Shown here: in pieces, positions 2,415-63,452 of the stretch
Numbering within the stretch: position 1 is the first letter of the stretch
Layout of the letters: the number at the start of each line of letters is the position of its first letter
From: Verrucomicrobiota bacterium
GTDB taxonomy: Bacteria; Verrucomicrobiota; Kiritimatiellia; CAIQIC01
Length of the DNA stretch: 64,000 bases
Direction of reading: 5' to 3'
Assembly (NCBI GenBank): GCA_004321905.1
Contig: SCQF01000012.1
Span: 5,411-69,410, forward strand
Notes under the pieces: generated by a model
Database searches by the model: none
Told to the model about the DNA's origin: nothing
What the model saw: only the letters and a program-made list of their open reading frames with translations
Made by a program: the position numbers and the translations under genes

Positions 2415-2433
2415 TTTTCCAAGGCTTGGAAAA
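2415..2433. repeat. 19-bp palindromic unit TTTTCCAAGGCTTGGAAAA (single copy)
   Basis: Perfect 19-bp palindrome, 8-bp arms with a 3-nt centre. It lies between the fmt start (2375) and the NUDIX stop (2449). Confidence 0.8.
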
Positions 2434-2448
2434 GTGTTCGGGGTGCCG

Positions 2449-2898
2449 TCAAAACGTACTCGCCCAGCGATTCGGTCCGGTGCCAGCACGCAACCAGCCG
2501 GGCAGGAGCCGTGCCACGATGCGCGGTTCGAGCCTGGATCGGGCGAGCGATGTGAGCGGCCACCAGATGAATTCCAACTTTTCCTCCGCGGATGCCGGTG
2601 GTTGCCGCAACGTGGCGCGGGGCAACCGGAAGGTGAAAACAAAATTAATTTCCGTTACGCGATGATCGGTTTCATCGAAAGCGTGCTGAACAACACCTAA
2701 CAACCGGCCGACGGCGCAGCGCAGGCCGAGTTCTTCGGCAAGTTCGCGGCGGAGTGCGTCGGGTGCGCGCTCCTCGCCTTCGAGGTGGCCGCCGGGTAGG
2801 TAAACGTTGCCTTTCTTCCGGTTGCGGCAGAGCAAAATATGGCCGCGGTACAGGCAGGCACCACGGGCAATAATTTCGGGAGCATTCTCGGGTTGCAT
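2449..2898 (-). CDS. NUDIX hydrolase
   Basis: The Nudix box is present: GGHLEGEERAPDALRRELAEELGL. Confidence 0.75.
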   Translation of the reverse strand: MQPENAPEIIARGACLYRGHILLCRNRKKGNVYLPGGHLEGEERAPDALRRELAEELGLRCAVGRLLGVVQHAFDETDHRVTEINFVFTFRLPRATLRQPPASAEEKLEFIWWPLTSLARSRLEPRIVARLLPGWLRAGTGPNRWASTF

Positions 2899-2921
2899 AT
2901 TTCACGCTTGCCATCACCGAC

Positions 2922-3005
2922 TGGTGGGCGAGGGGGGACTTGAACCCCCACGGCTTGCGCCACAAGATCCTAAGTCTTGCGTGTCTGCCATTCCACCACT
3001 CGCCC
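2922..3005 (-). tRNA. tRNA-Leu (anticodon TAG)
   Basis: The reverse complement folds as a class II tRNA: GGGCGAGTGGTGGAATGGCAGACACGCAAGACTTAGGATCTTGTGGCGCAAGCCGTGGGGGTTCAAGTCCCCCCTCGCCCACCA. It has a long variable arm, anticodon loop cTTAGga, a T-loop GGTTCAAGTCC and an encoded CCA. Confidence 0.8.
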
Positions 3006-3103
3006 GCTAAACGGTGGAGAAGTTTATCCGCTTTGCCGGCGACCGCAATACGAAACGGATTGTAGCGAAGGGAACACAACGACCCACATTTTGCGCCACT
3101 CGT

Positions 3104-4039
3104 TCAGCAGCAAACGGGTGTGGCGAGCGGATCACCGGGACGTGGTTGGGCTTTCCAGCGGCGGTGAATCCAAATCCACTGATCGGGATGCGCGCGGATT
3201 TCGCGTTCGAGAATGGACGTGTAAAGCTGCGTGTAACGCAAGACGGTTTCCGGCGTGCGGTCGGGCGGCGGCTCGATCACGGGCAGAATGCGGATGTGGT
3301 GGCCACCATCTGCGCGGCGTTGGATGAAGACAGGGATCACCGGCGCCTGCGCTTGCGAAGCGAGTACGGCCAACCCCGGCGAGGTGCTGGCGGGGCGTCC
3401 GAAAAATTGCACGAACACGCCTTTGTCGTGCGGCCGGTTTTGGTCGAGCATGAAGCCGACCAGCTTGTTTTCGCGTAGCGCCCGGATGCAGGTGCGGGCC
3501 GCGTTGTGGGCATAGACGACGGTGATGCCGTAACGCTGGCGCAGGCGATTCCAGAGTTCATCCACGGCGGTGTTTTTGAATTTCTTGGCGACGATCGAGA
3601 GTTGATATTTACGCTGGGCGGTGTACATCGCGAGCAATTCCCAACTGCCGTAGTGCGCCATGAGAATCAACGCGCCACGCCCGCGCGCAAGGGCCGCGGT
3701 GACGATTTCTTCGCCTTCGACGCTGAATAAGTCGCGGATATTTTCATCCGCGCCGCCGGCTTCGCGCAGAATTTCCACGAGATTGGTGGCCAAATTTCGA
3801 TACATGCCGTTGAGTGCGGCGACGGCGGCGGTGGGCGTGAGTTCCGGCAAGCTGCGGCGCAGTGCGGCGAGCGCCTCGGCGCGGCGCTGGCGGACGATAT
3901 GGCCATAGAACCAGCCGAGTCGCGCGCCGAGCCGCAATATCGTAGGGCGCGACACGCGCGCGAGGCCACGGGAAATGCCGTTGAGTATAAAGTGAAGCAT
4001 GCGCCGGAAAGAATAAGCTTTCGCGGATGAAAACGCCAA
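3104..4039 (-). CDS. Lipid A biosynthesis lauroyl/myristoyl acyltransferase family (LpxL/HtrB-like lysophospholipid acyltransferase)
   Basis: LPLAT_LABLAT-like motifs are present (LILMAHYGSWELL, GFMLDQN, QFFGRPASTSPGLAVLA). The true start may be the internal Met (MLHFILNG) near 4000. Confidence 0.7.
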   Translation of the reverse strand: MAFSSAKAYSFRRMLHFILNGISRGLARVSRPTILRLGARLGWFYGHIVRQRRAEALAALRRSLPELTPTAAVAALNGMYRNLATNLVEILREAGGADENIRDLFSVEGEEIVTAALARGRGALILMAHYGSWELLAMYTAQRKYQLSIVAKKFKNTAVDELWNRLRQRYGITVVYAHNAARTCIRALRENKLVGFMLDQNRPHDKGVFVQFFGRPASTSPGLAVLASQAQAPVIPVFIQRRADGGHHIRILPVIEPPPDRTPETVLRYTQLYTSILEREIRAHPDQWIWIHRRWKAQPRPGDPLATPVCC

Positions 4040-7470: not shown

Positions 7471-7521
7471 TTTTCCAAGGTTTGGAAAAGGGAACAGGCG
7501 TTTTTCCCAAACCTTGGAAAA
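7471..7521. repeat. Paired palindromic units (TTTTCCAAGGTTTGGAAAA, 12 bp, TTTTTCCCAAACCTTGGAAAA) forming a ~51-bp dyad
   Basis: Two units whose centres are mutually reverse-complementary (GGT vs ACC), so the whole pair is one larger palindrome. They lie between the SPFH operon start (7428) and the lipoprotein stop (7542). Confidence 0.8.
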
Positions 7522-7541: not shown

Positions 7542-9161
7542 TCAATTCTTTGTCTTCGCCGCGACCTTGCGGGCCTGTTCCACCAACTCGGCCAAGGCGG
7601 CGGCGGGTACGACATGGAGGCGCTGCTCCTGCTGCAAGGCGAGATCGAACGGCATGGATTTACGCGAAGGCCGGCGGTTCATGGCCATCGGCTGCAAGGC
7701 CGTCACGCCCAGCAGACGACCATCGGCTAGAAAAATGGGTACACCCAACGGATTCTCGCCACCGGGATGGCCGTCGGTCAAATAGAAGACGCGCGGCTGG
7801 GTGATGCAGGCCGTGATTTTGCCGGTATCGGCGGTGAGGGTATAATGGTGCGAGCGATCAAGGCGGCTGATCGCGAGCACGTCGTCGAAGAGCTCTGCTT
7901 TGGCGTTCGGCTGCAAGGCGAGCGCGGGCCAAGCGGGGATTTTTTCGCCGGACTTCGGCGCGGGCGCAAGCACGGTCAACATCAGGTCGTCGTCTTGCAA
8001 GACGATGCGGGCGGGCACTTCCGTCCCGTCATGCAGCACAAAGTTCAGATGCTGCTCTTCATATTTGAGCTCGGCGGTCTTGCCGCTGTTGCCGCAGATC
8101 GCGAAACCCGCGCGGTCCACCAGCGTGGCGACGCATTCGACGTTTTGTTCGTGCGGCTTCGCGTTGTGGCCGTCGTTATACTTGAGGGAGCCACGCAACG
8201 TGACGATCGCGTCCTGCCGGGCCGCGATGAACGCGCGCGCCTGTTCACCGGAAATTTCGCCGAGCGTCGTTGGTCCCGCCGCGCGAGTGAGCGCCGGTGG
8301 CGGTTGGGCCACCGTGATAACGCGCGCGGTGGCTTTTTGGGCGCGCGCCACCAAGTCGCGCACGTCTGCGACCGGTAAAATGATCGACAGAGGCCGCACT
8401 TGGTTTTCCGATATCTTTTCGAGTTGCTCCAAATCGGGTGGGCGGAAATCCACCGAGCCGATGCCGATCAAGCGGCCATCGGTGGCAAAAACAGGCAGGC
8501 CCAGCGGCACGATTTCCGTCATGAACATGTGGCACGCCCGCGGCTTGGTCAACGCATTCACCGGCAGGCCACGCACCACCAGCGGGGTGCGCTGACAAGC
8601 TTCACCGGTGCGACTGAGCACCAGACAGGGCGCGTGCAACGCCGGCGTTGCTTCACCCGTCAGCGCTAGCGCGGGGAACGCGGACGTTTTTGCGCCGGCT
8701 TGCGGCTCGATGGCGAGCACGGTGAGGCCGAGGTCGTCATCCTGGGTGACCACGCGTGCCGGTACTTCCGTTTTATCCGCAAGCAGAACGCGCAACTTTT
8801 CCAAGTGCGCCTTGAACTCGATTTCGAACGATTGGTCGCCACGCTGAATATGCAGCGGGCCGTGGAACATGCTGCTCACAGGGTCCAGCAACAAGTTGCC
8901 CGCCACGACCCAACCGGTGGCATCCACAATCGTCGCCGGGGCTTCCACCGGCGCTTCATTTTCCTGCTTCATGCCCAGACCTTTCACGGTCATGGTGGTC
9001 TTGAGCGTGCCCAACACCGTGACGATCGAATTTTGATGCGCGGCCACCAAGTGCCGGGCGAGCGCGGCGCTGCCGCCCATCGCATGCGATCCCGACCGGC
9101 TGGAGACGCAACCGGCGAGTGCGAGCAGCACCACTGCGGGAATCGCGTATAAAATTTTCAT
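7542..9161 (-). CDS. Lipoprotein with two tandem degenerate (catalytically inactive) trypsin/HtrA-like domains
   Basis: A lipobox is present (LLALAGC). Both duplicated halves share remnants of HtrA core motifs (VVTQDDDLGLTVLA / IVLQDDDLMLTVLA; LIGIGSV / LLGVTAL) but lack the His and the GNSGGP Ser. It is co-oriented with htrA. Confidence 0.45.
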   Translation of the reverse strand: MKILYAIPAVVLLALAGCVSSRSGSHAMGGSAALARHLVAAHQNSIVTVLGTLKTTMTVKGLGMKQENEAPVEAPATIVDATGWVVAGNLLLDPVSSMFHGPLHIQRGDQSFEIEFKAHLEKLRVLLADKTEVPARVVTQDDDLGLTVLAIEPQAGAKTSAFPALALTGEATPALHAPCLVLSRTGEACQRTPLVVRGLPVNALTKPRACHMFMTEIVPLGLPVFATDGRLIGIGSVDFRPPDLEQLEKISENQVRPLSIILPVADVRDLVARAQKATARVITVAQPPPALTRAAGPTTLGEISGEQARAFIAARQDAIVTLRGSLKYNDGHNAKPHEQNVECVATLVDRAGFAICGNSGKTAELKYEEQHLNFVLHDGTEVPARIVLQDDDLMLTVLAPAPKSGEKIPAWPALALQPNAKAELFDDVLAISRLDRSHHYTLTADTGKITACITQPRVFYLTDGHPGGENPLGVPIFLADGRLLGVTALQPMAMNRRPSRKSMPFDLALQQEQRLHVVPAAALAELVEQARKVAAKTKN

Positions 9162-9891: not shown

Positions 9892-9942
9892 CTTTGCCAA
9901 GGCTTGGAAAACGGGAAGGCCGATTTTTCCAAACCTTGGAAA
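9892..9942. repeat. Paired palindromic units (tttGccaaggcttggaaaa, 13 bp, ttttccaaaccttggaaaa)
   Basis: Located between the htrA stop (9951) and the downstream lipoprotein start (9880). The second unit ends only 9 bp after the htrA stop, and the first ends 12 bp before the next ATG. Confidence 0.8.
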
Positions 9943-9950
9943 ACGCCTCA

Positions 9951-12029
9951 TCATGGGGCATTTTTCTTGCTCGCGCCGTTCCCGTTGGTCCAATCCGGCT
10001 CCAGTTCGGCAAACAGCGTATGCACGCCACGCTTCAAGAAAAATACGACGCGCCTGGCTTTGGCGTGCGCGGCTTGCTTGAGCCGTTTTTCGGCGGTCGC
10101 CACGTCGCCGGTCGTCGTGCCGTCAATCGCCAGCAAAATGTCGCCACTGGCCAAGCCGGCCAGTTGCGCCCAGCCGCCGGTTTCGACGACGGCGATCTTT
10201 ACGCCTTGGAGGTCCGCCGGAATATCGCGATGAATCCGTTCCAGTTCCGTGAGCTTCTCGATGGTCAGATCGAAAACATCGTCTTTATAGGGTAGATGCT
10301 CCTCGGCGGTGCTCAAATCTTCCTCTAGTTTTAGAGTGAGCGTTTGCGACTGGCCGCCGCGCAAAATTTCGCAGGGCACAGCGCGACCCACGCGGTAGCG
10401 CCGGATCTGCGCGTAGATATCGCTCACGTCTTCGGGCCGCTCGCACTTCACCGGGTCGCCATCGAACTTCAGCAGGATGTCGCCCTTTTGAAAACCGGCG
10501 CGTTCGGCGGAGTGGCTGCGATAGACCAGTGTGACCAACGCGCCGCTGCGGCCCTGCAAGCCCAGTGCTTCGGCCAGTTCCGGGCTGAGCGCCTGCAATT
10601 CGGCGGAGAGTCCCGGCTTGCGCGCCGGTTCGACGTCGGGCCGTTTCTGCTCCTTACCGATTTTCACGACCGTCAAATACTGTCGTTTGCCGTGATCGAA
10701 TTTCACGAGCACCGGCTTGGTACCTTCGATGCCCTTGAGTTGCGCGTCGGTCACGCGGCGTAAATCGGCCACGCTGTTCACCGCGGCCTGGGCCACTTCC
10801 AGAATGACGTCACCTTCGTTGACCGCCGGCTTGGCGTCGCTCACGGCGCTCGCCAAACCCACGGAAACGACCAGCACGCCATTGGTGTTCGGCCGTTGCC
10901 ATTCGATGGCCGCGATCAGCGTCAGGTTACGCGCCACCATGCCCCATTCCTTGAGTTCCACGTCGTTGCTTTGCGCCTTGCCGCGCACGCGGGTCGTCAG
11001 GGTCAGCTTGTGTTCCTTGCCGTCGCGCAACGTCACGAGTTCCACTTGTTTGCCGACCGGCGTGGAAAGGAGCAGCCGGTTGAAAGCCGGTAAATCTTCC
11101 GGGATGCGGGCATCCACCTCCACGCCGTCATATTTTTGCAACACATCGCCCGCCTTGAGTCCCGCCGCCGCCGCGGGCGAATCGGGCAAGACACCGCCGA
11201 CGAGTACGCCACGTTCGATGCCCAGATTTTTGGGCCGCGCCTGTCCTTCGATGCCCAGCCAGCTCCGCTGCACACGGCCTGTCGCGATCAGTTGCTGCGC
11301 CACGTCTTTGGCGATGTTGCTCGGAATCGCGCCGCCCAAACTGCCCAAGCCGATTTCGTTGATGCCGATGATTTCGCCCGCGGGGTTCACCAGCGGTCCG
11401 CCGCTGTTGCCCGGATAAATCACGGCGTCGTGGCCGATCCAACGCACGACTGAACCGATGGCCTCGCCCTCTTCGCGGAAAGCACCCGCGCCGCCGAACA
11501 TGGAAGGTAGCATGAGCTGCGTGTTGCTGATAATACCCTTGGTCACCGACTGCGAGACGCCCGCCGGACAACCCATCGCCAACGCCACGTCGCCCACCCT
11601 CAACTGGTCGGAATCGCCGAATTGCGCCACGTGCAGCGGCGCTTTATTTTTGCGTTTGCTCAAATCAAGTTGCACGATGGCGATGTCCGTCAGCGGATCG
11701 GTCGCCACCAGCCGCGACTCGACTTCTTCGCCGTCGTACATCCGGCAGATCAGCCGCTTGCCGCGCCCGGCCACATGGTGATTGGTGATGATATAGCCAT
11801 CCTCGGAAATGATCGCGCCGCTGCCGGAACCGAGATTTTTTTCCAGCCGTCCGCTACGCGGCGACTCCATCACCACCATGATCCGCACCAGCGACTGGTA
11901 CATCCGGCTCACCGCGCGATCCACTTCCGCCGCGCTGATGGCGGGCGTTTCTGCGTGCGCGGGCAGGCGGGCGAGCAGCGCCGCCGAAAAAACGAGCAGC
12001 CCCACAAAGCGCCGGCGGTTTGGTTGCAT
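9951..12029 (-). CDS. htrA: HtrA/DegP/DegQ-family periplasmic serine endopeptidase with multiple PDZ domains
   Basis: The S1C catalytic triad motifs are intact (TNHHVAG, DIAIVQLD, GNSGGPLVN) and there is a signal peptide. The long C-terminal region is PDZ-like. Confidence 0.9.
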   Translation of the reverse strand: MQPNRRRFVGLLVFSAALLARLPAHAETPAISAAEVDRAVSRMYQSLVRIMVVMESPRSGRLEKNLGSGSGAIISEDGYIITNHHVAGRGKRLICRMYDGEEVESRLVATDPLTDIAIVQLDLSKRKNKAPLHVAQFGDSDQLRVGDVALAMGCPAGVSQSVTKGIISNTQLMLPSMFGGAGAFREEGEAIGSVVRWIGHDAVIYPGNSGGPLVNPAGEIIGINEIGLGSLGGAIPSNIAKDVAQQLIATGRVQRSWLGIEGQARPKNLGIERGVLVGGVLPDSPAAAAGLKAGDVLQKYDGVEVDARIPEDLPAFNRLLLSTPVGKQVELVTLRDGKEHKLTLTTRVRGKAQSNDVELKEWGMVARNLTLIAAIEWQRPNTNGVLVVSVGLASAVSDAKPAVNEGDVILEVAQAAVNSVADLRRVTDAQLKGIEGTKPVLVKFDHGKRQYLTVVKIGKEQKRPDVEPARKPGLSAELQALSPELAEALGLQGRSGALVTLVYRSHSAERAGFQKGDILLKFDGDPVKCERPEDVSDIYAQIRRYRVGRAVPCEILRGGQSQTLTLKLEEDLSTAEEHLPYKDDVFDLTIEKLTELERIHRDIPADLQGVKIAVVETGGWAQLAGLASGDILLAIDGTTTGDVATAEKRLKQAAHAKARRVVFFLKRGVHTLFAELEPDWTNGNGASKKNAP

Positions 12030-12104: not shown

Positions 12105-12155
12105 TTTTCCAAGGGTTGGAAAAAGTCAACCGTCCATTTTCCCGGCCTTGGAAAA
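12105..12155. repeat. Paired palindromic units (ttttccaagggttggaaaa, 13 bp, ttttcccggccttggaaaa)
   Basis: About 75 bp upstream of the htrA start and immediately downstream of the response-regulator stop (12168). Confidence 0.75.
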
Positions 12156-12167: not shown

Positions 12168-12842
12168 TCAGTCGGCGACGTGGTTTTGATGCCAAGCGCT
12201 GGCCACGTCTTTCGGCCCCAGCCCCCAACGCCGCGCGTAGGCCAGCAATTCGCGGTCTGAATGGACGTCCAGTTTGCGTCGCGTGTTTTTCCGATGGACG
12301 CTCACGGTGTGTTCGGAAATCCTGCACTGTGCCGCGATTTCCGGGTCGCTGAAGCCGCCCACGACCAGCCGCAGCACTTCCTGTTCCCGCGTGCTCAAAA
12401 TTTTGTGAAAGGCCTCGGCGGAGGCGAGGTATTGTTTCCGGACGGCGAGGAAGCCCGGCGAAAAAAAGACGCAGCCAGCCAACACACGTTGTACGGCTTC
12501 CGTAACCACGCTCAACGGGCTGGGTTTTTCCACATAGCCTTGCACGTCGCTCTGGATCACCCGGTAGATGGTGTGGGGATCCATGTAGGCCGAGAGCATG
12601 AGAATCTTGACCGTCGGCACGACCGCGCGCAATGGCGCGATCATTTCCAGGCCGCTGGTGCCGGGCAGTTGAATGTCCAACAAGATTAGCTCGGGCTGGG
12701 TTTGCGTCGCCAGCGGATAGGCTTCGGCGGCGCACCGCGCGCAGCCCACGATGCTCAGATTCAATTGGCTGGCCAAGCACGCCGATAGCAGGTCGGCGAG
12801 CAACTGCTCATCTTCTACGATCATGACCGACGGGCGTTTCAT
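12168..12842 (-). CDS. NarL/LuxR-family two-component response regulator (REC + LuxR HTH), orphan with no adjacent kinase
   Basis: A receiver domain is present (MIVEDEQLLADLL...ILLDIQLPGTSGLEM...KILMLSAY), followed by a LuxR HTH (LSTREQEVLRLVVGGFSDPEIAAQCRISEHTVSVHRKNTRRKL). Confidence 0.85.
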   Translation of the reverse strand: MKRPSVMIVEDEQLLADLLSACLASQLNLSIVGCARCAAEAYPLATQTQPELILLDIQLPGTSGLEMIAPLRAVVPTVKILMLSAYMDPHTIYRVIQSDVQGYVEKPSPLSVVTEAVQRVLAGCVFFSPGFLAVRKQYLASAEAFHKILSTREQEVLRLVVGGFSDPEIAAQCRISEHTVSVHRKNTRRKLDVHSDRELLAYARRWGLGPKDVASAWHQNHVAD

Positions 12843-14352: not shown

Positions 14353-14371
14353 GTTTCCAAGCTTGGGAAAC
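14353..14371. repeat. Degenerate single palindromic unit gtttccaagcttgggaaac
   Basis: The half-sites tttccaa / tgggaaa are imperfect. It lies in the divergent region between the lpdA start (14288) and the AEC transporter start (14436). Confidence 0.55.
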
Positions 14372-15432: not shown

Positions 15433-17889
15433 TCAGGGCGCAACGATCTCGAAGGGGATCGCCGGTAGCGTGGTCGCCTGAAATCGTTGTTTGTTGTTGG
15501 GTGACTTATTTTTCGCGGAGCTGCCGGAACGTTTCAGGAAAACGGCGACGATCAAGTTGCCTTTTTGGCCGGGTTTGTTTTTCGTCGCATCACTGACCAC
15601 AATGAGATCACTGCCGCCGGAGACGGACACAACTTTTTGGAGGGTGATGCCGTCGGGGGGATCGCTCAGTTCCATCTCCAGTTTCCCGTATGAAATGCTG
15701 GACGGCACGTTCACCTGGATACGCGCCGTACCGCCGGACGGGATTTTGATCGGCAACGCACTGAGCACTTTGGCGGCGGCTTTTTGTTTGAAGTAGCCGC
15801 CCACCGCCACATCCAAGTCTTGGAAAGGAACCAGATGCCGGTAGAAAAAGGCCTGCATCATGTCTTCAGCCGGCACCGCGATATGGGTCACCACCTGGCT
15901 GTTGATCGTCGCCTGACCTTCAAAAACCGGATGAAATACTTCCACCGGCGAGGACGGGGCGACGGTCAGCGTAAGCTTCACTTGGTCTTGGCCGGCGGGT
16001 ATCCCGGTGCCGCTCAACTTGAAGTCTTTTGGCGCATTTTTGAGCGTAATCGCGATCGCGTTGGTGAAGCCGTCGTGACGCACCGCATAGACGGTGAGCG
16101 GCACCGTGCCGCCGATGCGGACATTGATGCTGGACGGAACCAGGCGGAGCGCAAAATCAGGACGCGGCGCGCTGAGGCGCAAGCGGTAGGCAAATTCCGG
16201 GCCACCTTGGTGCTGCGTATCCGCGATCTCCAGATAATACGCGCCATTCGTCGGCAGCGTGGCGCGGAGGTAGGAATCGGCGTGATGCGTTTCAAGACCC
16301 GAACCCTTGTCCTCAAAATCGTCATTGAACGCAATCTGTTTGCCGTTGGCATCGGTCAGCCGGAGTTCGGAATCGAGCGGCGAGTTGAGGCGGCGCGCGA
16401 TGACTTCGGCAATGATCTGGTCGCCGGTTTTGCCTTCGAATGTGAAAAAGTCCCGATCGCCGGGGTGATCAATACGGCCGTTCACGATGATCGGGAGCGT
16501 GACCGCTTGGGCGGTCCGGCGCTGGCCGTTGGATTTTTTCTCAAAGCACTCGGGCAAGGCGTCCACCACAAACGGCGCGAAATTGGATATCCAGTCGTCC
16601 TGGCGCACAGAAACAGGATAGATGCCCGGCGCTTTACTTTGATTGTCGAGCGTCAGCCGATGGCTCGGTAGATTCCAGCCTTTCAACTCGACGGTCGTTG
16701 AGGCGCCGGCAGGGCCGCCGAGGGGAAAGAGACTCGTGATGAAAGGCATTTCGCCGAGGGTGATGCGATAGACGAAATCTTCACGACCACGATAAATGGA
16801 ATCCTTGATTTCGAGCACATAATCGCCATCCGCCGGGATTTCATAATAGAGCACCGGATCAGGATTGAAACGGAAGTCATCGTCATAGGCCACTTCTTTG
16901 CCCGCCGCGTCGTAGAGCGTCAGCGTGGCTTGGAACCATCCGGGCACCGCATCGGCCAGGTAGGGAATCAGCTCGCGTGCGCTGGCGGCGATGACGAGGT
17001 GTGTGCCCTGCTGGGCCGCGAAACGGAAACGATCCACGGTGCCGGGCATGATCTGGCCGTTGACGACGGTGGGTAGCGTGATCTTTGTCTCCGTTTTTTC
17101 TTTGGCGATTTTCGTCTGATAACCAAGTTGGGCTTCCTTGAGCGTCCGTTGTCCCCGAATGGTCTTGATCGCCGGCTTGGTGAATTCCGGCATTTGGCCG
17201 ATCTTGAAGAGTAGTGGATTCGTCAACCCTTGCGGTGTTCCCAAGCGTACCTCGCGGTCGCCCGGCTTGGCGTCCGCGGCCACCGTAACGCGCAGCATGG
17301 CGAGTTCGGAGATCGCCGGGTTCTCCGGCCTTCTGACGCTCGAATACGCTTTCTTGCGTATCTCATAGAGCAGCTTGTCGTCGGCATCCGTCCAGGTGGC
17401 GTGGGCATATTTCTTTTTGATGGCTTCCAGTTCCTGGTCGTCTGTGGCGCTATCGCTCTTGATGGTCTTGGAATTTTTGAAGCTCCGGAACTTTTCCAAG
17501 GCCCGGAAATCGTTCCGTACCACGGCCCGGCGCGCCATCAACTCATCGAGTTGAATGCGCAGGTCATTAAGTTCCTTCTGCGTAATGGGCCGAACAAAGT
17601 CGGTGAGGGTGGCTTGCACGCCGCCGCCCGAGATGAACACATTGGTGATGCCGATCAAAAACTGTCCACCAATGACCACCTCGAACGTGGTGCCTTGGCG
17701 TCCGCCGGCGGGATAGACATAGCCGATGTGCGGCGCGCTTTGCTGCGCCCCCGCGCTGCCGGGAAACAGCAGCGCTGCCGCAAAAACCGTTAGCGCACAC
17801 CAGCGTGCGGCGCCGTTTTCCAAGGCTTGGAAAAAGGTGCGGTTGTGTTTTCCAAGCCTTGGGAACTGCTGTCGAAATAGGGTTCTCAC
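15433..17889 (-). CDS. Large secreted hypothetical protein with pre-peptidase C-terminal (PPC)-like beta-sandwich domains
   Basis: An 818-aa ORF with a hydrophobic signal-like segment (CALTVFAAALLFPGSAGAQQ) and repeated D-x-D-x-Y-x-L-E-I motifs (GDYVLEIKDSIYRGREDFVYRITL; GAYYLEIADTQHQGGPEFAYRLRL). The start is ambiguous because the first 25 codons run through a palindromic-repeat pair. Confidence 0.4.
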   Translation of the reverse strand: MRTLFRQQFPRLGKHNRTFFQALENGAARWCALTVFAAALLFPGSAGAQQSAPHIGYVYPAGGRQGTTFEVVIGGQFLIGITNVFISGGGVQATLTDFVRPITQKELNDLRIQLDELMARRAVVRNDFRALEKFRSFKNSKTIKSDSATDDQELEAIKKKYAHATWTDADDKLLYEIRKKAYSSVRRPENPAISELAMLRVTVAADAKPGDREVRLGTPQGLTNPLLFKIGQMPEFTKPAIKTIRGQRTLKEAQLGYQTKIAKEKTETKITLPTVVNGQIMPGTVDRFRFAAQQGTHLVIAASARELIPYLADAVPGWFQATLTLYDAAGKEVAYDDDFRFNPDPVLYYEIPADGDYVLEIKDSIYRGREDFVYRITLGEMPFITSLFPLGGPAGASTTVELKGWNLPSHRLTLDNQSKAPGIYPVSVRQDDWISNFAPFVVDALPECFEKKSNGQRRTAQAVTLPIIVNGRIDHPGDRDFFTFEGKTGDQIIAEVIARRLNSPLDSELRLTDANGKQIAFNDDFEDKGSGLETHHADSYLRATLPTNGAYYLEIADTQHQGGPEFAYRLRLSAPRPDFALRLVPSSINVRIGGTVPLTVYAVRHDGFTNAIAITLKNAPKDFKLSGTGIPAGQDQVKLTLTVAPSSPVEVFHPVFEGQATINSQVVTHIAVPAEDMMQAFFYRHLVPFQDLDVAVGGYFKQKAAAKVLSALPIKIPSGGTARIQVNVPSSISYGKLEMELSDPPDGITLQKVVSVSGGSDLIVVSDATKNKPGQKGNLIVAVFLKRSGSSAKNKSPNNKQRFQATTLPAIPFEIVAP
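17816..17866. repeat. Paired palindromic units (ttttccaaggcttggaaaa, 13 bp, ttttccaagccttgggaac)
   Basis: Located between the DUF1501 stop (17902) and the start region of the 818-aa ORF. Confidence 0.8.
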
Positions 17890-21048: not shown

Positions 21049-21390
21049 ATGGCGGTGACGATCATGAGCGTGTTGGCACAGTGGATGTGCGCCGCCGGAG
21101 CTGGGGCGCGATCCGCAGATCGAGGTGCCCGGCAGCGCGCCCGAGGCCTGCATCGCACGCGACAAAATTCTCAAGCTGGTCCCCGACGTGGTGCTGCTCG
21201 ACCATCGAAATGCTGCGCATGGATGGCCTCATATTCCTACGCAAGCTGATGCACTATCATCCCGTACCCGTCATTATTGTCTCTTCGCTCACACCACCGG
21301 GCGGCCAGGTCGCACTGGACGTCATCGCTGCCGGTACCGTGGATGTGGTCTGCAAGCCCAGGCCGCAACTGCCATGGGCCAATAGGGCAG
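21049..21390 (+). pseudogene. Decayed CheB/CheY-like receiver-domain gene remnant (frameshifted, truncated)
   Basis: Two frames together read ...DPQIEVPGSAPEACIARDKILKLVPDVVLLD / IEMLRMDGLIFLRKLMHYHPVPVIIVSSLTPPGGQVALDVIAAGTVDVVCKP. This is the conserved REC domain of protein-glutamate methylesterase CheB, split by a frameshift, with no intact N-terminus or methylesterase domain. Confidence 0.4.
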
Positions 21391-21569
21391 AAATGCTGGC
21401 GAACAAAATCAAGGCCGCCGCGCTGGTGAAATTTAGTCGCAACGCCCCTGCGGTCGCCGGTGCGCCCGCCGAAGCGATCCGACTCGGTGCGGCCTGCGAG
21501 GTCGTGCCGCTTCAAAATATTTGCCGAGCGCCTGATCACGCACGCCTGCAACGGCGCAACATGACGCGG

Positions 21570-21620
21570 GTTTCCAAGGCCTGGAAAACATAACCGTCCC
21601 TTTTTCCCAAGGTTGGAAAC
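21570..21620. repeat. Paired degenerate palindromic units (gtttccaaggcctggaaaa, 12 bp, tttttcccaaggttggaaac)
   Basis: Located at the 3' end of the CheB-like remnant. Confidence 0.7.
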
Positions 21621-21637
21621 GGCATGCGCTATATGTC

Positions 21638-21658
21638 TATATGCACACATCTGCATAT
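21638..21658 (+). promoter_or_regulatory. Second copy (21/22 nt identical, opposite orientation) of the arsR operator/promoter: tatgtcT-atatgcacacatctgca-TATGGT
   Basis: tatatgcacacatctgcatat matches the reverse complement of 1271-1292. Its flanks resemble the -35/-10 of the arsR promoter, and it points toward the small ORF at 21774. Confidence 0.45.
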
Positions 21659-21773
21659 GGTTGGAAGGCATCGTGCCCGCCCGTATCCCCCATGGCCAGA
21701 AATTGCGGTTGCCTGCCGCCGTCGCTCCGTGTAGAGTCCGCGCCCGCAAACGACGCGAGTCAGGAGAATTATC

Positions 21774-21971: not shown

Positions 21972-22086
21972 CGACGCGGGGCGGGGCGTATTTCCGGCCT
22001 TGCAAAAGGCGGCGATTGCGCTAGAGTGAGTCCGTTCGACGCGTTGCCCGCCAAGGTGGCGGCGAAAGTTTGATAACGAGGAAATT

Positions 22087-55263: not shown

Positions 55264-55269
55264 CATACG

Positions 55270-57037: not shown

Positions 57038-57964
57038 ATGGTAACGTATAATGCGGTAGCATTACTGCCTGATGTTCTGACCCGCCTCCTCGTTGTCACC
57101 AATTACCCTGCTGTGCGTTGGTTGGTGGTGGATAACGCCAGCACCGATGGCACGGCGGACATGGTCGCCCAACAGTTCCCGCAAATTCGCGTGGAACGCA
57201 TGGCTGCCAACCTCGGTTATCCCGCCGCCTTGAACCGCGCGATCGCGCTGGCGGAGACAGACTTGGTGGCGCAGGTCAATCCCGACGTGCTCGTGGAGTC
57301 TGATTGGTTGGCTCCGTTGGTAGAAGCGCTGTTGCGCGCGCCTAACATCGGCATGACTGGCGGACGCATTTTGAACTCCGACGGCACTACGCAATTCTGC
57401 GGCACGCGCTTGCATCCCTTATACGGCCTGCTTGGCAACCGCTTCCCGTTTGATCCCGGAAATCATGAGGCGGAGGTGGATTTCCATAGCCCACTTTTCC
57501 TGGTGCGGAAAACGGCGTGGCAGGTAGCCAACGGTATGAACGAGCTTTATTCGCCTGGTTATTATGAAGATGCCGAATTGGGCTGGAATCTTCGCCGAAC
57601 GGGCTGGCGAGTATTATTCGTGCCGGCCAGCCGGGCGGTGCACCTCGGTTCCGCCAGTTTTGGGCGCTTGGCGCGTCACGATTTTATGCGCATCTATGAA
57701 CGTAATCGCCTGCTTTTCGTTTTCCGCAATTTCCCGACAACCTGGCTGACACTACACGTGCTCCTGGAGGGTATAAAAGCTGTGGAATGTTTACTCCGTG
57801 GCTATTTCCGGGAATATCTTGCGGCATGGCGCGAAATATTTCACCGCCGTGCCGAAATCCGATTATTTCGCGCAACTTGGCAACACACCGATTCCATCCG
57901 CAACCGGCGTTGCCGCCAGAGCGCGGGCCAAGGTGAAAAAACACACGTGGCGCACAGGAACTGA
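57038..57964 (+). CDS. Glycosyltransferase family 2
   Basis: MVTYNAVALL, VVDNASTDGT, VNPDVLV and a C-terminal YYEDAELGWNL motif are present. Confidence 0.75.
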   Translation: MVTYNAVALLPDVLTRLLVVTNYPAVRWLVVDNASTDGTADMVAQQFPQIRVERMAANLGYPAALNRAIALAETDLVAQVNPDVLVESDWLAPLVEALLRAPNIGMTGGRILNSDGTTQFCGTRLHPLYGLLGNRFPFDPGNHEAEVDFHSPLFLVRKTAWQVANGMNELYSPGYYEDAELGWNLRRTGWRVLFVPASRAVHLGSASFGRLARHDFMRIYERNRLLFVFRNFPTTWLTLHVLLEGIKAVECLLRGYFREYLAAWREIFHRRAEIRLFRATWQHTDSIRNRRCRQSAGQGEKTHVAHRN

Positions 57965-57970
57965 CCGCTG

Positions 57971-58020
57971 TTCCAAAGCTTGGAAAAGCCCACGTGCGAG
58001 TTTTCCAAGCCTTGGAAAAA
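57971..58020. repeat. Paired palindromic units (ttccaaagcttggaaaa, 13 bp, ttttccaagccttggaaaa)
   Basis: Starts 6 bp after the GT2 stop and lies about 130 bp upstream of the PPIase start. Confidence 0.75.
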
Positions 58021-60429: not shown

Positions 60430-60480
60430 GATGGCGCGGCGCGAGGATAGGCGAACGGCGGGCGCTGTCAATAGTTCCGG

Positions 60481-60533
60481 TTTTCCAAGGTTTGGAAAAG
60501 TACGCGCGCTGTTTTTCCACGCCTTGGAAAAAA
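60481..60533. repeat. Paired palindromic units (ttttccaaggtttggaaaa, 13 bp, tttttccacgccttggaaaaaa)
   Basis: Located between the ECF sigma start and the peptidase stop (60541). Confidence 0.8.
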
Positions 60534-60540
60534 CGCCATT

Positions 60541-63351
60541 TTATGGCTGATCGAGGCCGCGCAGAATCCAGCCCGGCAGCGGATCGCTGACGGGATGCCA
60601 GAAGCGCGGCGCACCCTGGGCATCCAACTCCCACAGGCCGGCCATACCGCCATCACGCGCTTGGAGCAGAATGTAGTTCTTGGTCAGCGCGCGCAGAATC
60701 CAGCCCGGCGGCAGGGTGACGTTGAGCGGCGTCCACGTGGTAATATGGTTCGAGCCGTCGAGCGTCCAATAACCAATCGGTGAACTTTCGCCGAATTGCA
60801 CCAATATCTGGTTCCCGCAAAGCGCGCGCGCGATCAAGCCAGCGACGGGACCATTCAAGGTCGTCCACGTGACCGGATGATTATTGCCATCAAGGGTCCA
60901 GACACCCACCATGCCGCCATCGCCGGCTTGCAACAGAATGCGGTTGCCATCCAAATCGCGCGCAATCCAGCCCGGCATGGCACCGGAGACCAGCCACCAG
61001 CGCACCGGCACGCCGTTCGCCAAATCCCACAGACCGATCATGCCGCCATCGCCCTGCTGCAATAGAATGCGGTTTTGATTGCTGGCCCGAAGAATCCAGC
61101 CGGCGCCCAATGGCCCGGTGATGGACTGCCACGCGGCCGGCCGATAATCGGCCCCCAGTGTCCACATTCCCGCCATGCCGCCATTGCCGGCTTGCAATAA
61201 CACTTTGAGCGTCACGTTGGTCGTGAAGGCGAAGTTGGCGGTGTTCGTGACATCGTTGGCCGGTACGGTGATGCTACGTACGGCGGAAGTGTTGCCATCA
61301 TTCCAACCGGTGAACATCCAACCCAAGGCGGCATCGGCAGAGATTTGCGCCGGCGTGCCCGCCGCATAGGTGCCGCCGCCGCTCACGGTGCCCCCGTTCG
61401 CCGGATTTGCCAGCACGGTGATGGTAACACTTGGCGGCTGACTGAGCGGATAAGCCGTGAGATCGCTCTTCTGATAGTCGGCAGGCATACCCGCGCCGCG
61501 CGAGAGACCGGCCAAACCGCGGACGGTATCCAAGCTTAGATAGTTGAGCCGGATGACGCCATTGGTGAAAAGCTCGATCTGAAAACTGTTTGTGGTGATG
61601 GTGTTATATTCCGGCACATTTTGGAACGTGACGGCCGCGTGATCGGCCAACTGTTTCCAAGAAACGGTTCCGCCGGCCGCCGGGTTCAAATCTTCGAACA
61701 ACGCCGAGATGCGCGGCTTGCTGAAATGGTTGGTCAGTGATGTGCTATAAGTTCTGTCGCCGGCATTGAAGGTGATGTAGCCGTTCGCGCCCACGTAAAA
61801 GGTGGAGTAGCGGGTGCCGTAGAGCGCCACTTGCATCCCGTTCGTCAGGCTGATGGCCGCATAGCCGTCGTCCGTGAGCACCAGCCGCGTGCCACCAGTC
61901 GGATCGGTCGGAAACGTCGTGATGTCGAAATGTGATGCGGTGTAGCCGTTGGAGGAACTGTTCGGCGTGAAGATGATGGACTTCCCCTTCAAATCGTTAG
62001 GCGTGGTATCGAACAACTCGGTGAAATAGTCCACTTGACCGACGCGCAACGCCACGGGGCGGGTTTGATAGTCACGGTCGGTCAGATTGGTGATTGTGAG
62101 GGTGTCGGCATAATTCCCCACGGCCAGCGTATTGGCGGTGCTGTTGATGCTGACGGTCACCGTGACTTGCGCGCCGCCGTTCAGCGTACCGGAAGCCGGC
62201 GCGATGCTGATCCACGGCTGCGTATGGCTTGACGACCAATTCACGGCATGTGTGGCCGCGTTGCGCACGGTGTAGGCCTTGGCGCTGGGCGAGAACGCGC
62301 CCCCTTGCGGCCCGGTGACGCCGAGACCATCGCCCGGACTGACCTGCACGCCTGTGGCCGTACGATAATCCACAAAATTGGCGGCATAGCCCACGCGACT
62401 GCAACCATACTGAATGCGCATGTAGCCGCCCTCGCCCCACCCTGCGCTCCACGAGTTACGGAGAATCCACACACCATTCGAGCCTTGCGTATCGTCCCAG
62501 CCCACCAACACCACGGCATGATTGATGGTCTTGTCGTCGTTGTTGTTGAAGATGCCACCCACGTACGCCTGAAACGCACTGCTTGCATAAACGCCCACCG
62601 ACACCGGGCCATAGGTCATGATGGCACGCTTGATTTCGTCAGGCGTCGGCACATTGGAACCGGTGCCCAGATAGGCCCAGTTGTCCAGCCAGTAGCTATG
62701 CGGATAGGGCCCGTGCGGCGCGATATCTTGCGCCACATAGGGGAACGCCGTTTCCGGCACCGCGCCGTTGTCGCCATAGGGATCGTGCTTGGCCGAACCG
62801 CGCAAATGATAATCGTGAGCGAACCAGCCGCCGCCGCAACCCCAACCATCTTGATTGTCGCTGATCAGCCACTGCTCCGACAAATCGGCGATCACACCGT
62901 CTTTGATTTTGATGGCGCACTCCAGCGCGCCGACGGTGGAAAACGCCCAGCAGCTCCCGCACGCGGCCTGGTCGCGGATCGGCGGCAAGCCGGTTTGCGC
63001 GCGCCAGTCGAACGCGGTCGGCAAAGTACCGGCCGTCACACCACTGCTCCCCGCCGTGGCCGTCGTACCACCGCTGGTCAAGGTAGTGCTCGTGGCCAGC
63101 ACGCCGCTATTCCCCTCATGCAACGCAACGAACCGCGCTTTCTGTTGCCAACCACTCGGTTCCGCCAAGCTACACAGATGCGCGATATGGTGTTTGGAGG
63201 CGGGGTTATGCCCGACGGCAAAAGTCCAGCCCTCACGTCGGCCACGCTCGTGGAGCGCTTGAATATCCGCGTCCTGCAACTGCGCCACCGCCGGCAACAA
63301 CCCCAGCACGGACAACAAGCCCACGCCCAGACTCCAAACTTTGTACGGCAT
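60541..63351 (-). CDS. Secreted papain-family (C1A) cysteine peptidase with central beta-rich domains and five C-terminal ~45-aa repeats
   Basis: A signal peptide (MPYKVWSLGVGLLSVLGLLPAVAQL) is followed by catalytic motifs: the Gln/Cys motif QAACGSCWAFS, the His in NHAVVLVGW and the Asn/Trp in NSWSAGWGEGGYMRI. The C-terminal repeats follow the pattern ILLQ.GDGGM.G.W.L......W....GPL.GWI.R.L. Confidence 0.8.
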   Translation of the reverse strand: MPYKVWSLGVGLLSVLGLLPAVAQLQDADIQALHERGRREGWTFAVGHNPASKHHIAHLCSLAEPSGWQQKARFVALHEGNSGVLATSTTLTSGGTTATAGSSGVTAGTLPTAFDWRAQTGLPPIRDQAACGSCWAFSTVGALECAIKIKDGVIADLSEQWLISDNQDGWGCGGGWFAHDYHLRGSAKHDPYGDNGAVPETAFPYVAQDIAPHGPYPHSYWLDNWAYLGTGSNVPTPDEIKRAIMTYGPVSVGVYASSAFQAYVGGIFNNNDDKTINHAVVLVGWDDTQGSNGVWILRNSWSAGWGEGGYMRIQYGCSRVGYAANFVDYRTATGVQVSPGDGLGVTGPQGGAFSPSAKAYTVRNAATHAVNWSSSHTQPWISIAPASGTLNGGAQVTVTVSINSTANTLAVGNYADTLTITNLTDRDYQTRPVALRVGQVDYFTELFDTTPNDLKGKSIIFTPNSSSNGYTASHFDITTFPTDPTGGTRLVLTDDGYAAISLTNGMQVALYGTRYSTFYVGANGYITFNAGDRTYSTSLTNHFSKPRISALFEDLNPAAGGTVSWKQLADHAAVTFQNVPEYNTITTNSFQIELFTNGVIRLNYLSLDTVRGLAGLSRGAGMPADYQKSDLTAYPLSQPPSVTITVLANPANGGTVSGGGTYAAGTPAQISADAALGWMFTGWNDGNTSAVRSITVPANDVTNTANFAFTTNVTLKVLLQAGNGGMAGMWTLGADYRPAAWQSITGPLGAGWILRASNQNRILLQQGDGGMIGLWDLANGVPVRWWLVSGAMPGWIARDLDGNRILLQAGDGGMVGVWTLDGNNHPVTWTTLNGPVAGLIARALCGNQILVQFGESSPIGYWTLDGSNHITTWTPLNVTLPPGWILRALTKNYILLQARDGGMAGLWELDAQGAPRFWHPVSDPLPGWILRGLDQP

Positions 63352-63433
63352 ATTCACAAGCCGCCTCAACTGAGACAACGTAAGGCAAGAAATGGAAAGA
63401 GCAAGACCTGTGCCAGCGCGGGAAGATTCGACC

Positions 63434-63452
63434 TTTTCCAAGGCTTGGAAAA
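63434..63452. repeat. Single palindromic unit TTTTCCAAGGCTTGGAAAA
   Basis: About 80 bp upstream of the peptidase start and 8 bp downstream of the stop of the repeat-fragment ORF. Confidence 0.8.

Follow-up and report, generated by a model that had tools for sequence, protein, structure and literature searches.

A 19-bp palindrome iterated in helically spaced pairs at gene 3' ends in a Verrucomicrobiota bacterium, possibly a site for a DNA-binding protein

Short words iterated through bacterial genomes are known in several forms. The REP/BIME elements of Enterobacteria and Pseudomonas, including REPIN doublets, are short, essentially extragenic, lineage-specific and very high in copy number; they follow stop codons, lie between co-directional or convergent genes, form doublets and mosaic arrays, and have been proposed to bind gyrase, IHF and Pol I and to stabilize mRNA 3' ends. 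The uptake signals of Neisseria (DUS) and Pasteurellaceae (USS) are asymmetric, non-palindromic 9–12-mers, iterated about once per 1–3 kb, mainly as perfect copies of in-place origin. A third or more of these copies lie in genes, in preferred frames, and the intergenic ones stand just past genes, often paired, with lineage dialects and an absence from recently acquired DNA. HIP1 (GCGATCGC) of cyanobacteria is a GC-rich palindromic word of 8 bp, mostly genic and without phased doublets, that has multiplied across the genome through substitutions in genes and spacers alike; some authors connect it with methyltransferases and short-patch repair. Sites of the parS, NBS, SBS and matS type are 13–16-bp palindromes, some in genes, bound by dimeric HTH proteins and regionally confined at about 10–100 per genome. 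In iterons and phased operator arrays of the Lrp/NtrC type, which are local to one origin or promoter, units of 19–22 bp recur every 22 bp or about every 32 bp; at these intervals of two or three helical turns, proteins can bind cooperatively along one face of the helix.

The palindrome described here resembles REP/BIME elements in size, copy number, lineage specificity and all of the above traits of placement and arrangement. Like HIP1, it is a palindromic word multiplied across the genome by substitution, with a presumed trans-acting cause. Its outer TTTCC...GGAAA recalls the Noc site ATTTCCCGGGAAAT, and its units repeat at the intervals seen in iterons and operator arrays. Unlike parS-type sites, it occurs about once per 2–3 kb, on at least 70 unrelated contigs, with half-sites 11 bp apart; unlike iterons and operator arrays, it is genome-wide.

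Within the 64-kb stretch of DNA analyzed (hereafter the window), which comes from an uncultured Kiritimatiellia-type (PVC) bacterium, the palindrome, TTTTCCAA-N3-TTGGAAAA, is a repeat present far above chance, with 11 exact matches against 0.00 expected and 25 matches with at most two arm mismatches against 0.01 expected. For zero to four mismatches, 11, 9, 5, 4 and 3 copies were observed where about 0, 0, 0.05, 0.3 and 3 are expected; the commonest class is thus the perfect copy, and the density is about one unit per 1.7–2.6 kb. The initial annotation had counted 29 perfect copies, a number reached only by including two copies with three mismatches (14353 and 17492) and a half-site (29586); 11 copies have perfect arms. 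Its coordinates were correct to within 1–2 bases, the refined unit positions being 7503, 9893/9925, 21602, 29666, 32155 and 57969. It had also not recognized the sequence as a described element, and the palindrome is indeed so far undescribed, the word not being found in the literature searched.

Pairing is the dominant arrangement, as 22 of the 25 window units form 11 pairs, every one exactly 32 bp from centre to centre, or three turns of DNA. The doublets had been listed before, but their constant spacing had been missed. The 13-bp spacers differ in all 11 pairs and are mutually unrelated, and the centre bases are opposite between the two units in each of the 11.

The clusters part unrelated genes, and 12 of the 13 good ones lie 0–35 nt from a stop codon or overlap one. 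A single unit with perfect arms and centre GGC (2415–2433) stands between a NUDIX gene (2449–2898, −), with its stop 15 nt upstream, and fmt (1440–2375, −), with its start 39 nt downstream. The pair at 7471–7521 (0 and 1 mismatches, centres GGT/ACC) is 20 nt past the stop of a 539-aa trypsin-like gene (7542–9161, −) and 42 nt ahead of the SPFH gene start (7428). HtrA (9951–12029, −) is bracketed by two pairs: that at 9893–9943 (1 and 0, GGC/ACC) lies 7 nt past its stop and 12 nt ahead of the start of a 240-aa trypsin-like gene, and that at 12105–12155 (0 and 2, GGG/GCC) lies 75 nt ahead of its start and 12 nt past the stop of a LuxR-type response regulator gene (12168–12842, −). Further pairs are found 35 nt past the stop of a DUF1501 gene (17902–19260, −) at 17816–17866 (0 and 2, GGC/GCC); at the end of a CheY-like receiver ORF (21081–21593, +) at 21570–21620 (2 and 2), where the first unit covers the last 8 codons and the stop (21591–21593); and 26 nt past the tsf stop, where the rpsB–tsf operon ends, at 23175–23225 (0 and 1, GGG/ACC). 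The pair at 29634–29684 (0 and 1, ACC/GGC) abuts the stop codon of an aminotransferase gene (29685–30926, −), and that at 32155–32205 (2 and 1, GCC/GGC) is 2 nt past the stop of a second NUDIX gene (32208–32735, −). The final element ahead of a low-GC island (36–58 kb, zero units) is the pair at 35708–35758 (0 and 1, GGC/ACC), 4 nt past a GT4 glycosyltransferase stop (34564–35703, +), and the first beyond it is the pair at 57969–58019 (1 and 0, AGC/GCC), 4 nt past the stop of a GT2 gene (57038–57964, +) and upstream of a SurA-like gene. The last pair, at 60481–60531 (0 and 1, GGT/GCC), is 9 nt past the stop of a papain-family protease gene (60541–63357, −) and 9 nt ahead of an ECF sigma start (60471); upstream of the protease gene start, near the window end, stands a single unit with perfect arms and centre GGC (63434–63452). 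Another single unit, with one mismatch (22472–22490), occupies the convergent spacer between an OmpH-like gene (+) and a HAD gene (−). The genes lpdA (−) and an AEC-type transporter gene (+) diverge from the spacer that holds the doubtful degenerate copy at 14353–14371 (GTTTCCAAGCTTGGGAAAC, three mismatches), the sole copy away from a stop codon.

Deep gene interiors are free of the 25 window units with at most two mismatches. The description of the element as intergenic only therefore holds for these units, with the 21570 pair overlapping the end of an ORF, but fails for the genic three-mismatch copy at 17492 and for other lineages. In the window, clusters are absent from the overlapping or operonic pairs SPFH–SPFH, the two trypsin-like genes and rpsB–tsf, and no good unit occurs in the clear divergent promoter spacer 32736–32837 or upstream of rpsB. 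Pfam confirmed the gene neighbours named initially (fmt, SPFH, HtrA, lpdA, tsf, the aminotransferase, the glycosyltransferases and the ECF sigma factor). In other lineages, 99 ORFs beside units match 149 Pfam families, none more than three times; given such diverse flanking families the distribution is genome-wide, and the earlier judgement that the element is too dense for a single-regulon site stands. The wider set gives median distances of 18 nt to a facing stop and 71 nt to a facing start, with crude gene calls outside the window, and several doublets lie 3–12 nt ahead of the next start codon.

Some units adjoin terminator-like sequence. The 22472 unit caps a GC-rich stem (GGGCGGG...TCCGCCC) with TTTCTGTTT behind it (−29.3 kcal/mol, z = −4.9), and by this arrangement it looks like an intrinsic terminator. 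At the tsf site, the first transcribed unit lies within a GC stem (GGCGGCC/GGCCGCC), and the T run of the second unit comes after; at the 29634 pair, the T run of the unit comes behind a 13-bp GC hairpin in the aminotransferase gene end (29689–29718). The window shows no enrichment of canonical terminators, and the doublet has no U tract after it.

Related MAGs and metagenome contigs of GC 0.49–0.70 bear the same word. Among 194 distinct units from 70 loci in this GC range, arm positions are 90–100% invariant, a figure inflated by preselection, since the set was restricted to at most one arm mismatch and the metagenome loci were chosen for an exact match; in the unbiased sets, the window and the relative L004, the mismatch spectra peak at zero. 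The consensus is T4CCAA-K-S-M-TTGGA4, both 8-bp half-sites being nearly invariant. Position 10 is C in 0.47, G in 0.51 and A or T in 0.02 of the 194 units: the centre requires a G:C pair, either way round, and is strand-symmetric. Position 9 is mainly T or G and position 11 mainly A or C, with no covariation between the two (Watson–Crick combinations 35% observed, 31% expected). Among imperfect window units, transversions are as frequent as wobble-preserving transitions; the flanks do not lengthen the stem, and flank/spacer complementarity is a weak trend only. What is conserved is the sequence, not merely pairing. A lone unit makes only a weak hairpin (−6.8 kcal/mol, z = −1), and any pair can form one of 19 bp (−21 to −35 kcal/mol, z = −2 to −5).

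Neighbour spacings in relatives and metagenome contigs fall near whole helical turns. Over all lineages they are 21–22 (15 cases), 30–32 (94), 41–42 (8) and 50–52 bp (3), followed by 62, 73, 83–84, 94–95 and 105 bp; the larger classes may be sums of 22-bp and 31-bp steps. Arrays of 3–6 units occur, and orientation at 31–32 bp is the same in 40 cases and opposite in 33. In one lineage, a four-unit composite of about 115 bp, with conserved linkers and about 90% identity, is dispersed at unrelated loci, which is copy-and-paste behaviour.

Comparison with relatives, as proposed in the initial annotation, revealed a patchy motif that is lost between close relatives. L004 keeps the pair orthologous to that at 9893, with an unrelated spacer; in L001 and L002 this pair has decayed. 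The 12105 site aligns in the window and all three relatives, and is degenerate in L001 and L002. HtrA identities place these two relatives, which lack the motif, among genomes that bear it. The 26-nt offset of the tsf site is constant in five genomes, where its states range from a perfect pair (L249 has a pair) through four units (L251) to a decayed remnant (L247 and L250, a decayed unit and T8 run in which a GC stem is followed by T8). At lower-GC loci, 25 of 136 units (~18%) lie inside genes, 18 of them in one reading frame. One encodes IFQSLEK in a TopB-like gene and another IFPIFGK in NadE; alignment to solved homologues reveals no insertion at either place, and such units, in real genes and free of indels, therefore arose by substitution. 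These alignments indicate that copies arise and persist in place through point substitution, being kept in relatives and decaying in sister lineages. The centre triplet differs between lineages, and viral contigs contain only scattered matches, nearly all single.

We tentatively interpret the word, with slightly less than even confidence, as the recognition site of a sequence-specific, probably dimeric, putative dsDNA-binding protein, with the sites phased in arrays where transcription units end. Only some Kiritimatiellia-like PVC lineages would encode the protein. Spacings of 22, 31–32 or 42 bp would set successive dimers on one helix face, and could thereby allow cooperative binding as a tetramer or longer filament. 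A site for a nucleoid or other DNA-binding protein, one of two options raised initially, fits better than REP on account of the helical-turn spacing, the strand-symmetric centre and the absence of covariation and stem extension. Some observations speak against such a site: the pair hairpins may also allow a role in RNA or single-stranded DNA, the opposite centres of all window pairs would suit pairing between units, and the ~115-bp composite is copied and pasted in one lineage.

An unlikely alternative, though one that several observations would suit, is a DNA-uptake-signal-like word of the USS/DUS kind, in which a competence receptor prefers palindrome-bearing DNA, and biased uptake with recombination raises copy number wherever tolerated, past stop codons or in permissive in-gene frames. 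The density, the spectrum peaking at perfect copies, the in-gene copies made by substitution with a strong frame preference, the dialect-like centre triplet, the word-free island, the scattered and nearly always single viral matches, and the patchy distribution with decay where the system appears lost all agree with it, and the palindrome shares the DUS/USS traits listed above for intergenic copies. ComEC is encoded in the window (26088–28529) and DprA in relatives, but both are widespread and prove nothing. A 19-bp palindrome with an in-gene fraction of 0 of 25 in the window and ~18% elsewhere differs from the known signals, as does its strict 22/31–32-bp phasing, which has no USS/DUS counterpart; moreover, unlike this motif, USS and DUS are stable over whole families.

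We consider it improbable that the palindrome is a mobile element of the REP/REPIN or MITE kind, in which the doublet would replicate as a unit and a transposase gene elsewhere in the genome, RAYT-like or otherwise, would supply the enzyme that spreads its hairpin form. The REP-like family suggested initially is borne out in distribution (an extragenic high-copy palindrome, doublets and arrays at gene 3' ends) but not in REP-defining features. The opposite centres of window pairs would make them inverted doublets, doublets fold stably, the composite lies at unrelated loci, and sister-lineage decay resembles that of REPINs after RAYT loss. However, the element lacks the GTAG or CGTC tag that defines REP (PMC3733652). 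The arms are AT-rich and perfectly symmetric, whereas the REP/BIME stem is GC-rich and imperfect, and a single unit folds weakly. Spacers are unrelated in the 11 window doublets and most others, orientation is mixed, in-gene copies lack indels, and orthologous sites are inherited rather than re-inserted, with helical-turn spacing. Neighbours are not transposase-enriched, and no RAYT, Y1 transposase or IS200-like match was seen in the ~0.5 Mb examined, a weak test.

We also doubt that the element acts at the RNA level, the doublet folding, once transcribed at the end of the upstream gene, into a long hairpin with a role in transcription termination, in 3'-end protection or as an RNase III substrate. 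Units just past stop codons at operon ends, the lack of terminator enrichment, the fold energies of the doublets, the apical 22472 unit, and the conserved tsf stem with its T run and its decay to stem and T8 are consistent with this. Yet the sequence is conserved rather than pairing, single units are weak hairpins, the doublet lacks a U tract, and several doublets stand close before the next start codon; hairpin loops do not explain a spacing limited to 3 or 11–13 nt, and terminating copies in genes would be harmful. A promoter or operator for one regulator, such as an ECF-type promoter GGAAAA-N15-TCCAA across the doublet, is very improbable: the geometry loosely resembles sigma-E type −35/−10 spacing and many genes have a doublet upstream, but the 22472 unit sits between convergent genes, the divergent spacer and the rpsB upstream region have no good unit, 3–6-unit arrays, in-gene copies and the symmetric design fit poorly, and the density far exceeds any regulon.

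Returning to the phased protein-binding site, we suggest that the word behaves as an analogue of REP/BIME with an origin like that of the iterated words USS/DUS or HIP1, probably belonging to neither REP/BIME nor USS/DUS. In-gene copies are not obviously explained by a boundary role. In short post-stop spacers, at the boundaries of functionally unrelated transcription units and next to or within terminator hairpins, the arrays would serve as a protein-bound boundary, acting as a roadblock or termination aid, or alternatively as a supercoil or nucleoid anchor, or, in the transcript, as protection for the mRNA 3' end.

The word TTTTCCAANNNTTGGAAAA has 11 exact sites in the 64-kb window, against 0.00 in shuffled sequences, and 25 units of the 19-bp palindrome (two 8-bp arms around a 3-nt centre) are found at up to two arm mismatches, against 0.01 expected. 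The mismatch spectrum runs 11, 9, 5, 4 and 3 for zero to four mismatches and reaches chance level only at four. The initial annotation, whose coordinates were correct to 1–2 bases, had reported 29 copies with perfect arms; the repeat is indeed far above expectation, but only 11 units have perfect arms, and the figure of 29 includes two three-mismatch copies and a half-site. It had also listed doublets while missing their constant spacing. We found that 22 of the 25 units form 11 pairs, all with exactly 32 bp between unit starts and a different 13-bp spacer in each; the units at 2415, 22472 and 63434 are single. Exactly one unit is perfect in nine pairs, neither in two and both in none, a split with p ~0.06 under random assortment. 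Unlike any window pair, the pair at 1511/1543 of L004, a locus from a relative, has two perfect units. The centre bases are opposite in all 11 window pairs (nine G...C, two C...G), a regularity specific to this lineage, as the same and opposite orientations are about equally frequent over all lineages. Half-sites (TTTTCCAA or TTGGAAAA) occur 36 times within units and nine times in isolation, the latter mostly inside genes and against about one expected from composition; examples lie at 8797, 13284, 13447, 26793, 29586, 31228 and 35023. Because half-sites are mostly confined to units, we take the full palindrome as the unit and reject the half-site as a functional element. A CRISPR-like array was likewise rejected, given spacers of 3–13 bp and no more than three units per locus in the window and L004, or six in any locus.

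Gene context in the window, read from Pfam annotation and ORF geometry, places the clusters (pairs or single units at one locus) at the ends of genes. Twelve of the 13 good clusters lie within 35 nt of a stop codon or overlap one, and 11 clusters start 0–35 nt after a stop: that of a NUDIX gene (15 nt), a trypsin-like gene (20), HtrA (7), a LuxR-type regulator (12), DUF1501 (35), tsf (26), an aminotransferase (0), a second NUDIX gene (2), GT4 (4), GT2 (4) and a protease (9). The unit at 22472 sits between two convergent stops, and the pair at 21570 overlaps the last eight codons of a CheY-like ORF. Distances from a cluster to the next start codon vary far more widely (3 to more than 400 nt), and the genes on either side are functionally unrelated. 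None of the 25 window units is inside a gene. No cluster separates the overlapping or operonic neighbours SPFH–SPFH, the two trypsin-like genes, rpsB–tsf or NDK–aminotransferase, and no unit occurs in the clear divergent spacer at 32736–32837 or upstream of rpsB; the sole copy in a divergent spacer is the doubtful three-mismatch one at 14353.

The window also contains a stretch from 35.8 to 57.9 kb that is devoid of units despite several spacers of 80–350 bp. It coincides with a low-GC block (36000–57900, + strand throughout; GC 0.47–0.55 versus ~0.60 elsewhere in the window) of glycosyltransferase and polysaccharide genes, with a MarR-like gene first, which was probably acquired recently. The density of 25 units per 64 kb thus corresponds to 25 per ~42 kb outside this block. 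A second, unrelated 22-bp palindrome, TATATGCACACATCTGCATATA, has two copies in the window, with none expected. One (1271–1292, −) sits at the 5′ end of a gene for an ArsR-family HTH protein (932–1330, −), and the other (21638–21659, +) lies 18 bp past the 21570 pair, upstream of a small basic ORF of 65 residues (21775–21972, +) that follows an AGGAG and lacks a Pfam match. This palindrome looks like an ordinary local operator, unlike the 25-copy motif. Between the CheY-like ORF and an OmpH-like gene, the segments 21594–21774 and 21973–22086 hold no convincing long ORF.

A scan of metagenome contigs returned at least 120 stretches with a match. The metagenome loci were chosen for holding a perfect unit, and at least 70 loci, the window and L004 counted in, hold two or more units (426 kb; GC 0.49–0.70); low-GC contigs with a single match look like chance matches. 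One contig that carries the motif encodes an Fmt only 55% identical to that of the window, so the word spans a deep divergence. Among 194 distinct units, preselected for at most one arm mismatch, the arms are 90–100% invariant. A or T is very rare as the centre base (position 10), which is C at a frequency of 0.47 and G at 0.51; T or G occupies position 9, and A or C occupies position 11. The two positions beside the centre, 9 and 11, vary independently, with Watson–Crick combinations in 35% of units versus 31% expected. Distances between neighbouring units fall at 21–22 bp (n = 15), 30–32 bp (94), 41–42 bp (8) and 50–52 bp (3), then at 62, 73, 83–84, 94–95 and 105 bp, with only three out-of-phase values. 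Over all lineages, neighbours at 31–32 bp have the same orientation in 40 cases and the opposite one in 33, while those at 22 bp always have the same. Many unrelated contigs carry several units each, and the genes beside them vary widely: 99 flanking ORFs hit 149 Pfam families, with no recurrent transposase family. A parS-like local cluster was therefore rejected, as was a phage origin: the viral collection gave only 46 matches, scattered, almost all single and chance-like. Extrapolation from genome fragments gives perhaps 1,500–3,000 copies per genome.

Copies of the unit appear to have arisen in more than one way. Of the 136 units in lower-GC lineages, 25 are in convincing genes, and a single frame, which reads F-Q-x-L-E-K, accounts for 18 of these 25. 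Gene calls outside the window are approximate, and because the caller extends ORFs too far across units in metagenome contigs, assignments of units to genes in the high-GC contigs L131, L179 and L085 are unreliable and were left out. Alignment to solved homologues shows no insertion at the unit in either a TopB-like gene or NadE, which indicates that in-gene copies were made by point substitution in existing codons, a mode distinct from REP or MITE spread. The uptake words USS and DUS occur about once per kb and mostly as perfect copies, and this word resembles them in density and in a mismatch spectrum that peaks at zero. Many USS and DUS copies also lie in genes, made by substitution in preferred frames, a pattern present in the lower-GC loci and absent from the window. 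A drive of the uptake-signal type would account for the in-gene copies, the peak at perfect copies and the absence of the word from foreign DNA, but it leaves the phasing unexplained, along with the near-absence of in-gene copies from the window; we regard it as a possible though improbable explanation. Uptake signals act through a specific receptor by which competent cells preferentially take up DNA that bears the word. DNA-uptake machinery is present, with a ComEC gene in the window (26088–28529, +) and a DprA gene near tsf in relatives, including L247 (16201–17334), and is not specific for an uptake signal.

Copying is also evident. A composite of ~115 bp with four units recurs at unrelated loci with ~90% identity in JAEEG* and LXOW contigs (L085, L090, L097, L122, L138, L147, L151, L154 and L195). 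Its layout is U-12-U-11-U-3-U, with spacings of 31, 30 and 22 bp and conserved linkers such as CCGCCGAAAAAT, and its dispersal is copy-and-paste or conversion-like behaviour. Several copies sit at contig ends, so these arrays may contribute to assembly breaks. The family shows both modes, substitution and copying, and the window shows substitution only. Separately, L175 carries two identical three-unit arrays with identical spacers 1.85 kb apart (1202–1282 and 3051–3131), which looks like a local duplication. A REPIN-like mobile doublet would fit the dispersed composite and the inverted pairs of the window. Spread of REPs, REPINs or MITEs by insertion, however, leaves similar internal sequence and filled versus empty indels, and outside the composite we observed unrelated spacers, in-place origin, no in-gene insertion and inherited sites. 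A further defining feature of REPs is a tetranucleotide, GTAG or CGTC, conserved at one stem-loop end, and the repeats that a REP survey covering PVC genomes describes in them, such as those of Opitutus terrae, all carry the GTAG tag (PMC3733652). No conserved tetranucleotide is found within 12 nt on either side of the 194 units, only a T at position 0 (0.44) and an A at position 20 (0.47). A mobile doublet is decidedly unlikely. Tagged REPs also go with a cognate RAYT gene (a Y1/HUH transposase) that units flank; a tblastn search with an approximate IS200 TnpA query gave no match in the window or the other loci (~0.5 Mb from many genomes).

Comparison with relatives indicates that individual sites are inherited. 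Relatives of the window EF-Ts are labelled Kiritimatiellia or Kiritimatiellaeota. Among 80 genomes with an HtrA relative, only L004 carries the motif, with 12 units in 18 kb that include triplets at 31-bp steps. HtrA identities group L001 with L002 (93%), then L004 (86–89%) and then the window (78–82%), which nests the motif-less L001 and L002 among motif-bearing genomes. L001 retains four decayed copies versus 0.2 expected, L002 has no copy at up to four mismatches, and no other repeated palindrome takes the place of the motif in L001, L002, L003 or L011. The sites in both spacers flanking HtrA can be aligned between all four genomes. The window has intact units; L004 has an intact pair downstream and, upstream, a single one-mismatch unit beside a degenerate partner; substitutions and an insertion have eroded the units of L001 and L002. 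In the tsf–HAD spacer, the site begins 26 nt after the tsf stop in each of five site-bearing genomes. It is a pair in the window and in L249 (EF-Ts 91%), four imperfect units at 32, 31 and 31 bp in L251 (87%), and a decayed unit in a conserved GC stem followed by T8 in L247 and L250 (85%); L248 (78%) has nothing there. Where the motif has decayed, the tsf site is a plain GC stem and T8 terminator. Sites are therefore inherited, able to gain in-phase neighbours, and subject to decay once constraint is gone, with loss read from single-gene trees (HtrA and EF-Ts) that gene transfer could affect. DDE_Tnp_1 transposase genes lie near the rpsB–tsf–HAD block in L247 (11845–13161) and L251 (370–2178), with no motif units associated.

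The position of the clusters and the stable fold of the window doublets (−21 to −35 kcal/mol) would suit an element that acts purely at the RNA level, as a terminator or stabiliser. However, the constraints lie on sequence. Consensus intrinsic terminators are not enriched in the window (30 versus 27 expected; 38 versus 25.5), and the scan does not single out the motif. Intrinsic terminators have a GC-rich stem with a U tract directly after it; the elements lack this arrangement except at 22472 and the tsf site, where additional GC stems flank a unit, and the position matrix of the flanks of the 194 units contains no T run after doublets. A 13-bp GC hairpin at 29689–29718 (−), in the last aminotransferase codons, is followed by the stop TGA and then by the T run of the first unit, a terminator-like arrangement. 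For one unit plus its flanks, the folding energy is −6.8 kcal/mol (z = −1.05), a stability matched by 31 of 200 shuffles. Rfam models at gathering thresholds matched nothing in the window except two tRNAs, and the 194 units show no covariation between positions 9 and 11, so the signature of a structured RNA family is missing. The palindrome is not extended by its flanks. Complementarity between flanks and spacers, or an enclosing GC stem, shows a weak trend at most (z = −1.6 to −2.1) and was rejected as a general feature. The 13-nt spacers, conserved only at the first (A) and last (T) positions around a GC-rich middle, are not self-complementary, and a bidirectional terminator of the form AAAA-hairpin-TTTT was rejected. 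We consider a purely RNA-level element quite improbable.

These properties instead point to recognition of double-stranded DNA by a putative symmetric dimer, with adjacent dimers on one face of the helix. Sequence rather than pairing is conserved, the centre is strand-symmetric, the edges of the half-sites vary independently, the stem is not extended, and neighbouring units are only ever two, three or four helical turns apart. In addition, the mismatch listing shows that transversions are as common as wobble-preserving transitions in the imperfect window units. In such a scheme, each unit would be bound as duplex DNA, neighbouring dimers would share a face, and the arrays would act as a boundary, either in DNA or, after transcription, at the 3′ end of the RNA. 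Position suggests the boundary function: arrays lie directly 3′ of stop codons at operon ends, and some are integrated into terminator hairpins (22472, tsf, and the 29689–29718 hairpin running into the T tract of a unit).

Among known kinds, REP/BIME comes closest in distribution and architecture, USS/DUS and HIP1 in mode of origin, and iterons and phased operators of the Lrp/NtrC type in spacing logic, yet the motif fails tested defining features of each. REPs are imperfect palindromes of 20–40 bp that are stable alone, whereas this unit, with perfect 8+3+8 symmetry and AT-rich ends, is weak alone. The alternating orientation and few conserved linkers of BIMEs are not seen overall; the window alone has consistently opposite orientation, and its linkers are not conserved. 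parS and NBS sites number tens per genome and cluster regionally, unlike a word on many unrelated contigs. Our literature search found no paper with the motif sequence, nor any that describes a word of the REP or uptake type in Kiritimatiellia or Lentisphaerae. Iterated extragenic palindromes as such have been described, but this one unites properties that have not been reported in combination: a long AT-rich word of perfect symmetry conserved across lineages ~20% apart in GC, neighbours separated by whole turns of the helix, an origin in point substitution instead of transposition, and repeated loss with visible decay in sisters.

We tentatively hypothesize, with low confidence, that the word is either a genome-wide, protein-based punctuation of transcription-unit ends in some Kiritimatiellia or the first self-recognition word of the uptake-signal type outside Proteobacteria; either way, thousands of phased sites would be kept by one dispensable trans-acting factor. 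Under punctuation, a putative dedicated protein would serve as a terminator, insulator or supercoil barrier in place of intrinsic terminators. We consider the motif of moderate to high interest, mainly because its loss and decay among sister MAGs make the trans-acting factor discoverable: MAGs that keep or have lost the word constitute a natural experiment that should reveal the protein. For binning, the word serves as a lineage marker, and its sites provide a way to study how a largely uncultured PVC class delimits its transcription units or recognizes DNA as self.
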